DNA of 64,000 bases, from the sequence record MK327933.1. One strand, 5' to 3'. Origin of the DNA: Escherichia phage vB_EcoM_G2285. The position numbers and the translations under genes were made by a program. Shown one piece after another: positions 2 to 874 of this stretch (position 1 is its first letter; each line of letters starts with the position of its first letter). The notes under the pieces were generated by a model. That model had not been told where the DNA came from and made no database searches. It saw nothing but the letters and a program-made list of their open reading frames with translations.

Positions 2-556
2 ATGTCGATGACCGAAGATTATTGGTTACAACGACGTGATGGTAAAGCAGTAACAGAAGTTGATACATTACCAGGTGCAGATAATACCGGAAATATGGAA
101 GATGTACGTTGGTTCCGTAATGCGCTTTATATGGCTTTACGTATTCCTATTACCCGTATTCCAAGTGACCAAGGTGGTATACAGTTTGATGCTGGTACTT
201 CTATTACACGAGATGAATTGACATTTGGTAAATTTATTCGTGAGCTGCAACATAAATTTGAAGAGATATTCCTAGACCCGCTTAAAACTAATTTAATTCT
301 TAAAGGAATTATTACAGAAGATGAGTGGAATGATGAAATAAATAATATTAAGATAAAATTTCATCGGGATAGTTATTTCTCGGAATTAAAGGATGCTGAG
401 ATTCTGGAGCGTCGCATTAATATGCTTCAGATGGCCGAACCATTTATTGGTAAATATATTTCTCACAGAACAGCTATGAAAGATATTCTTCAGATGTCTG
501 ACGAGGAAATTGAACAAGAGGCTAAGCAAATTGAAGGATATTCTTCAGATGTCTGA
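2..556 (+). CDS. 20: Portal vertex protein gp20, C-terminal part (5' end outside window); last codons frameshifted by the 55-bp duplication
   Basis: Translation reads as T4 gp20 C-terminus from memory; position immediately upstream of 67-68-21-22-23; frame leaves the native frame at 536/537. Confidence 0.85.
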
Positions 557-591
557 CGAGGAAATTGAACAAGAGGCTAAGCAAATTGAAG
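482..591 (+). repeat. Perfect 55-bp tandem direct duplication (482-536 and 537-591)
   Basis: Read directly: both copies are gatattcttcagatgtctgacgaggaaattgaacaagaggctaagcaaattgaag; flanking bases differ, so the unit is exactly 55 bp. Confidence 0.9.
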
Positions 592-646
592 AAGAGTCGA
601 AAGAGGCTCGTTTCCAAGACCCCGACCAAGAACAAGAGGATTTTTA

Positions 647-874
647 ATGGACGATTTAATTCAAGCTATTAAATCAAACGACCTCGTTGCTACTCGAAAG
701 TTTTTTGAAAGTGCAATGGCAGAAAAAACGGTTCGTTTGATTGAAGCACGCAAAGCAGAAATCGCTTCTCAATTTTTGATTGAAGGCGAAGAACCTGAAG
801 AAGAAGAGAAAGCTTCGGAAGACGACGAAGATGATGACGATGAAGACGAATATGATGATGAGGACGATGAATAA
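647..874 (+). CDS. 67: Prohead core protein gp67 with acidic tail
   Basis: 75-aa ORF with D/E-rich C-terminus, at the T4 gene 67 position. Confidence 0.7.

Follow-up and report, generated by a model that had tools for sequence, protein, structure and literature searches.

The deposited sequence of Escherichia phage vB_EcoM_G2285 (MK327933.1) carries, close to the end of its portal gene 20, a perfect 55-bp tandem duplication that we interpret, with a probability of roughly 0.8, as an assembly or finishing artefact, namely an untrimmed SPAdes overlap of k = 55; most probably the duplication is not a biological feature. The window referred to throughout is the whole stretch of 64,000 nt that was analysed, the left edge of which falls within the portal gene. 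The initial annotation had left it open whether the duplication was a genuine variant or an artefact, and the evidence now favours the latter because the length of the repeat matches an assembler k value, the two copies are perfect, the arrangement is absent from relatives and from the sequence collections searched, the junction shows no microhomology and the rest of the sequence compared is clean. The matter is of practical consequence, in that gene callers applied to the record as it stands yield a truncated portal protein together with a spurious ORF of 32-45 residues, and such errors spread into protein clusters and comparative analyses; on the artefact reading, the stated genome length is also 55 bp too great.

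The repeat and the reading frames around it

The two copies of the repeat (Table 1) are identical at 55 of 55 nucleotides in a direct comparison and abut at a spacing of 55, and Tandem Repeats Finder describes them with a period of 55, 2.1 copies and a score of 223. The 55-nt unit reads GATATTCTTCAGATGTCTGACGAGGAAATTGAACAAGAGGCTAAGCAAATTGAAG, and at the junction the first copy runs out as CAAATTGAAG and the second begins as GATATTCTTC. The chance of a perfect 55-nt tandem match in 64 kb is approximately 64000 x 4^-55, so that the repeat cannot be regarded as a chance event, and a repeat search of the full window brought up no second tandem repeat of this type. The identity past the 55-bp unit amounts to 0 nt on the left and 0 nt on the right, which leaves the junction without microhomology. 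When a duplication arises by slippage or unequal exchange at a pair of short direct repeats, that short repeat persists as identity extending past the units. A TGAA does lie just upstream of both repeat boundaries; it was not used for the exchange, since G536 is kept in both copies, and slippage or exchange at this motif was therefore ruled out. Breakpoints free of microhomology fit an arbitrary contig start, which is supportive but weak evidence.

The portal ORF of the window is an orthologue of T4 gp20 (PF07230; PDB 3JA7), with residues 1-178 of the ORF as it stands in the window matching positions 252-431 of the 433 positions of the PF07230 profile. Because 55 is not divisible by 3, the frame of gp20 shifts at the duplication and proceeds as GGA TAT TCT TCA GAT GTC TGA, which encodes GYSSDV followed by a stop. 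As a result, the portal ORF in the record comprises 511 codons, of which 505 are native and 6 are new, and the 18 C-terminal residues that make up the acidic tail are missing from the protein as encoded. The Portal_T4 domain is thus present, and the full-length C-terminus with its tail and with the overlap between the gp20 stop and the gene 67 start, which all T-even relatives have, is absent; unlike T4 gp20, the portal of the record lacks the final 18 residues, and GYSSDV forms its end. The duplication sits 55 nt short of the end of gene 20, and deletion of either copy in silico recovers exactly the missing C-terminus, including the TAA that overlaps the gene 67 ATG. The restored C-terminal fragment of 196 residues is 100% identical to gp20 of AV113, a protein of 523 residues that ends on the gene 67 start codon, and the restored ORF corresponds to a normal 523-residue Mosigvirus gp20 with its crown domain, its acidic tail and its stop overlapping gene 67.

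The normal last 32 residues of gp20 remain encoded in an orphan ORF that starts at ATG 549 and overlaps the new TGA. The join between the two copies also generates a GAAGGA 11 nt upstream of this ATG. In an exact look-up, the 32-residue peptide is on record solely as a fragment of gp20 cut off at a contig end. In all these respects the description given in the initial annotation agrees with the direct sequence comparison, the ORF translation, the in-silico deletion and the ORF listing: it had reported a perfect 55-bp tandem duplication, the coordinates of which all hold, a frameshift into the six new codons GYSSDV with a stop at 554-556, the continuation of a single-copy gp20 to the TAA over the gene 67 ATG, and the loss of an 18-residue acidic tail that is kept in a remnant ORF running from ATG 549 to that TAA.

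The initial annotation had furthermore claimed that the duplication removes the stop/start coupling of gene 20 to gene 67. The loss of the overlap itself stands, but the functional loss was overstated, as gene 67, which is intact, has a GAGGA of its own and a ribosome-binding site is annotated at the equivalent place before gene 67 in the curated relative phage 55. Because of this GAGGA, the loss of the stop/start overlap would matter little.

Table 1. Features at the gene 20/gene 67 locus, with positions counted within the window
Feature	Position	Strand	Basis or remark
Portal gene 20, 3' part; ORF ends ...KQIE + GYSSDV	2-556	+	Pfam PF07230 Portal_T4, E 3.8e-82
Copy 1 of the 55-bp unit	482-536	+	Identical to 537-591; on the artefact reading, the 55 nt with which the original linear contig ended
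Copy 2 of the 55-bp unit	537-591	+	Identical to 482-536; on the artefact reading, the 55 nt with which the original linear contig began
Join point G/G	536-537	+	Zero microhomology; 533-551 = GAAGGATATTCTTCAGATG
Orphan 32-codon ORF, normal last 32 residues of gp20	549-647	+	ORF listing
Premature TGA in the shifted gp20 frame	554-556	+	Translation
GAGGA Shine-Dalgarno sequence for gene 67, 6 nt before the ATG	636-640	+	630-650 = GAACAAGAGGATTTTTAATGG
Native gp20 TAA, overlapping the gene 67 start (TAATG)	645-647	+	Likewise in AV113, APCEc01, phage 55 and gp23-identical contigs
Gene 67 (prohead core protein), intact	647-874	+	Pfam PF17634 GP67, E 9.6e-22

Relatives and the quality of the surrounding sequence

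The window belongs to a Mosigvirus (RB69-like, Tevenvirinae), with the best match over 25 kb being 98.1% to APCEc01 and mar005P1. There are 148 records that are at least 99% identical at the locus, and each of them covers 446 nt of the 501-nt query, which corresponds to a single copy of the unit. The comparison with the same locus in related T-even genomes, which the initial annotation had proposed, accordingly found the duplication in none of the approximately 150 relatives with at least 99% identity at the locus among GenBank phages. An 80-nt query centred on the junction had no match in one piece among GenBank phages, the junction 31-mer was not found in IMG/VR, JGI metagenome contigs or GTDB genome contigs, and a search of E. 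coli genomes and plasmids with the gp20 locus gave no hits. A gp23 identical to that of the window occurs in seven contigs, and in all four of the gp23-identical contigs with a complete gp20 gene this gene encodes an ordinary gp20 of 522-523 residues, with gene 67, where it is called, starting at the gp20 stop. The exact look-up matched only gp23 and the 32-residue peptide, and the duplication is seen in none of the contigs concerned; no identical protein is recorded for gp37, gp67 or Hoc. As a separate observation, one contig with a gp23 identical to that of the window, the 5.8-kb AAUSJJ010000199.1 (GCA_013854795.1), covers Mosigvirus gp20-gp23, and gene 67 is not called in the gap behind its gp20; this contig may represent phage carry-over in a bacterial assembly.

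The single-copy state of the relatives also bears on the proposal that a programmed +1 frameshift within 482-553 produces a full-length gp20 in which 18 residues are repeated internally, for which the sole supporting point is that a +1 shift would restore the frame of the tail. The arrangement occurs in no relative and is therefore not a conserved recoding site, and inspection of the frame, GGA TAT TCT TCA GAT GTC TGA CGA, reveals none of the known +1 motifs (CUU-UGA-C, CUU-AGG-C). With neither a motif nor conservation to support it, programmed frameshifting is considered extremely improbable and was ruled out as an explanation.

The quality of the sequence elsewhere was assessed by comparing the 71 annotated CDSs of APCEc01 to the window by tblastn, the stretch compared being window positions 1-48,300. 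Across these 71 CDSs the conserved genes are intact in one frame except for gp20, td, nrdB and one hypothetical protein, and no conserved gene apart from gp20 contains an out-of-frame indel. In nucleotide alignments with APCEc01 and phage 55, all other indels not divisible by 3 are either intergenic or compensated within a few bases, and among the indels in alignable sequence the 55-nt insertion is the longest; no homopolymer-type errors were found in the compared part of the window. Because the frames are intact and the other indels are intergenic or compensated, the window is a clean assembly of short-read quality with one singular anomaly. Poor sequence quality as the cause of the duplication was ruled out, there being no second frameshift in a conserved gene among the 71 CDSs. 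The splits in td and nrdB were likewise ruled out as sequence errors, since both genes are interrupted by endonuclease-bearing intervening sequences.

The same observations weigh on a technical origin of another kind, such as a chimera introduced by polishing, a merge of long and short reads, or a minority defective sub-population that entered the consensus. It has to be noted that the Phage Annotation Guide counts duplicated regions and repeats in the wrong place among the common faults of submissions and states that terminal repeats can land inside a sequence (PMC8785237), which lends such origins some general support. Errors in the circularisation of long-read assemblies, however, usually extend over hundreds of bases to kilobases and are imperfect rather than exactly 55 nt long, homopolymer-type errors are absent from the compared part of the window, and the exact value of 55 would be left otherwise unexplained, so that these origins are taken to be very unlikely.

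Assembler overlap or genuine duplication

Owing to the circular permutation of T4-like phages, short-read de Bruijn assemblers close the genome into a cycle, which is then printed as a linear contig with its first k bases recurring at its end; under the defaults of SPAdes and metaSPAdes, the largest k is 55. In the model favoured here, if such a contig were rotated ("reopened") to match a reference without one of the copies being removed, both copies would come to adjoin each other; alternatively, two contigs sharing a 55-mer could have been pasted end to end with the overlap kept. Either route would leave two perfect 55-bp copies in tandem at an arbitrary site, here near the end of gene 20, and the real phage would carry an ordinary 523-residue gp20 with a TAA overlapping the gene 67 ATG. 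That the overlap was left untrimmed in the making of the MK327933.1 sequence is a step that we infer and that is not documented.

Close parallels for the first part of this model come from phage 55 (Mosigvirus, OQ599310.1) and phage 107, two T4-like coliphages for which SPAdes 3.12.0 in each case produced a contig that was circular and had a "55-bp terminal overlap". These overlaps were "manually trimmed/removed" and the genomes were then "reopened" to be syntenic with a reference, with both assemblies being processed on the CPT Galaxy platform (PMC10353447, PMC10281100). The canonical k set of SPAdes includes 55 (PMC8172020), and another circular contig has also been reported with a 55-bp overlap. 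The repeat in the window resembles the terminal k-mer overlaps of SPAdes and metaSPAdes ("55-bp terminal overlap", "127 bp artificial overlaps") in its perfect identity and in its exact length of 55, and, as in the two published cases, it occurs in a T4-like phage with circular permutation; the genus and the type of pipeline also agree (PMC10353447, PMC10281100). Unlike those overlaps, which lie at the two ends of a record, the copies in the window are adjacent and internal, and rotation or concatenation without trimming is therefore required. All three of the relatives checked in this respect (AV113, CCU7 and CAU_ECP01) begin at, or at most 5 nt from, a gene start, which indicates that re-opening is routine in Mosigvirus, and Mosigvirus relatives are deposited as "circular". 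What was found at the locus is in keeping with an assembler overlap in five respects, namely identical copies, adjacency without any extension of the identity, a length equal to k, a genome of the circular or re-opened type and absence from relatives.

The trimmed genome of phage 55 (170,393 bp) contains no direct repeat of at least 40 bp within 300 bp, and tandem repeats of this size are consequently not a natural trait of Mosigvirus. As it has no internal repeat, phage 55 was ruled out as a precedent for an internal duplication and serves as a clean control. In the announcements of phages 55 and 107, the contig "including" the overlap and the finished genome have the same stated length (PMC10353447, PMC10281100); in the case of phage 55 this wording is loose, and the deposited record is not faulty.

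A different reading is that the duplication is genuine and recent and that the portal of the virion is a functional 511-residue gp20 ending in GYSSDV, without the end of the crown helix alpha-12 and the acidic tail, with gene 67 being translated from its own Shine-Dalgarno sequence; this is regarded as unlikely. In its favour, loss of the tail leaves the whole Pfam Portal_T4 domain, tails of distant T4-like portals are anywhere between about 9 and over 100 residues long and are variable in sequence, tblastn alignments to cyanophage and Vi1-like portals end at ...DILQMSD, and gene 67 does have its own GAGGA. In T4 gp20 the crown domain spans residues 451-524, of which residues 517-524 are disordered, and 8 of the 18 residues lost correspond to this disordered stretch (PMC4493910); as many as half of the portal subunits tolerate a GFP fused to their C-terminus, with prohead expansion being affected (PMC9958956). 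Both of these findings speak for the truncated portal, as does the mildness of the position discussed below. Against it, the acidic tail is unchanged even in homologues that are only 81% identical overall, some acidic tail is present in every homologue compared, and E180, which is replaced by Tyr in the truncated gp20, is nearly invariant among homologues. An experiment on C-terminal truncation of T4 gp20 was not found in the literature.

Spontaneous tandem-duplication frameshift alleles of T-even phages provide the natural point of comparison for a genuine event. Real tandem duplications of about this size (~55 bp) do occur in these phages, usually arising at short direct repeats. The repeat in the window is similar to these alleles in being a short duplication within a gene that shifts its frame; unlike them, it has a junction without a direct repeat (0 nt of microhomology at the boundary) and occurs in no independent isolate or assembly. 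The alleles are moreover unstable, as their copies are able to recombine, and recombination in T-even phages should quickly remove a perfect tandem repeat of 55 bp, so that the rapid loss to be expected also argues against a genuine duplication. To this are added the exact equality of the length with the assembler k, the zero microhomology at the junction, and the uniqueness of the duplication with respect to about 150 near-identical relatives and all collections searched.

The position of the duplication counts against an assembler overlap, since it is mild for the protein, which is also the outcome that selection would give if the mutation were real. If positions are drawn at random from the first 25.7 kb, approximately 11% would either cost a gene at most 18 codons or be intergenic. 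A mild position is what is expected for a mutation that has survived selection and slightly favours a mutation filtered in this way; it carries small weight because real duplications could also fall in many non-essential genes.

If the duplication were real, translation might stop at the TGA and restart at ATG 549, aided by the AAGGA created at the join, to give a free 32-residue tail peptide, although reinitiation at this ATG is purely conjectural. That a real duplication has left a viable Mosigvirus without the last 18 residues of its portal, with the tail perhaps being provided in trans as the 32-residue peptide, is judged quite unlikely. Should it be true, a tail that is strictly conserved within T-even phages would be either dispensable or able to work as a separate peptide, and the phage would be a modest experiment of nature on whether gp20 can do without its C-terminal tail. 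The assembler-overlap explanation, which we prefer, has a more general use, in that phage genomes with circular permutation can be screened for perfect internal tandem repeats as long as a common assembler k (55, 77, 99 or 127), which are to be regarded as suspect overlaps unless reads show the contrary.

Other features of the window

The acidic C-terminal tract of gp67 (811-873; GAT/GAC/GAA repeats) is variable in length among close relatives, with gp67 proteins of 71, 73, 75 (the window), 76, 77, 78 and 79 residues, and an exact protein look-up returned no record anywhere of an identical 75-residue gp67.

The td gene (39602-41478, - strand) is interrupted at Pfam position 175/176 by an insert of about 1 kb with an ORF (40061-40798) of the I-TevI type that combines GIY-YIG, I-TevI zinc finger and DNA-binding domains. 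An Rfam search of the window returned nothing at the gathering score; a sub-threshold match to a group I intron was found within the td insert at 39962-40192 (42.5 bits, the gathering score being 50; E 2e-8). The td gene is uninterrupted in APCEc01 and phage 55, and this Mosigvirus thus has a T4-like intron in td. The nrdB gene (34683-36950, - strand) is split by an intervening sequence into 36273-36950 and 34683-35216, with the insert encoding an HNH endonuclease of 269 residues (35321-36130) and giving no Rfam match; in APCEc01 and phage 55 nrdB is intact with 392 residues. The nrdB insert resembles the RB3/T4 nrdB intron with I-TevIII.

An in-frame TGA at 24372-24374 (- strand), within 24183-25007, cuts a conserved hypothetical protein of 274 residues into parts of 211 and 62 residues. 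APCEc01 has CGA at this position (codon 212), and outside this codon the gene shows 97.8% identity; the TGA could be either a true nonsense allele or an erroneous base.

Finally, two families of short intergenic repeats were noted. The first comprises repeats of 45-60 nt at 29481-29540, 42333-42392, 61676-61735 and 62188-62247, with similar motifs at 31615-31660, 61416-61461, 42772-42811 and 59085-59124; on the - strand these carry a GTTTACA, a spacer and a TATAGT or TATAAT, and from their sequence they resemble early promoters of T-even phages, placed upstream of leftward genes. The second consists of near-identical GGGAGAC-CGAA/TTCG-GTCTCCC hairpins with T runs at 4392-4421, 26008-26037, 42842-42871 and 51160-51193, which are probably shared intrinsic terminators, lying for example behind gene 23 and gene 35.
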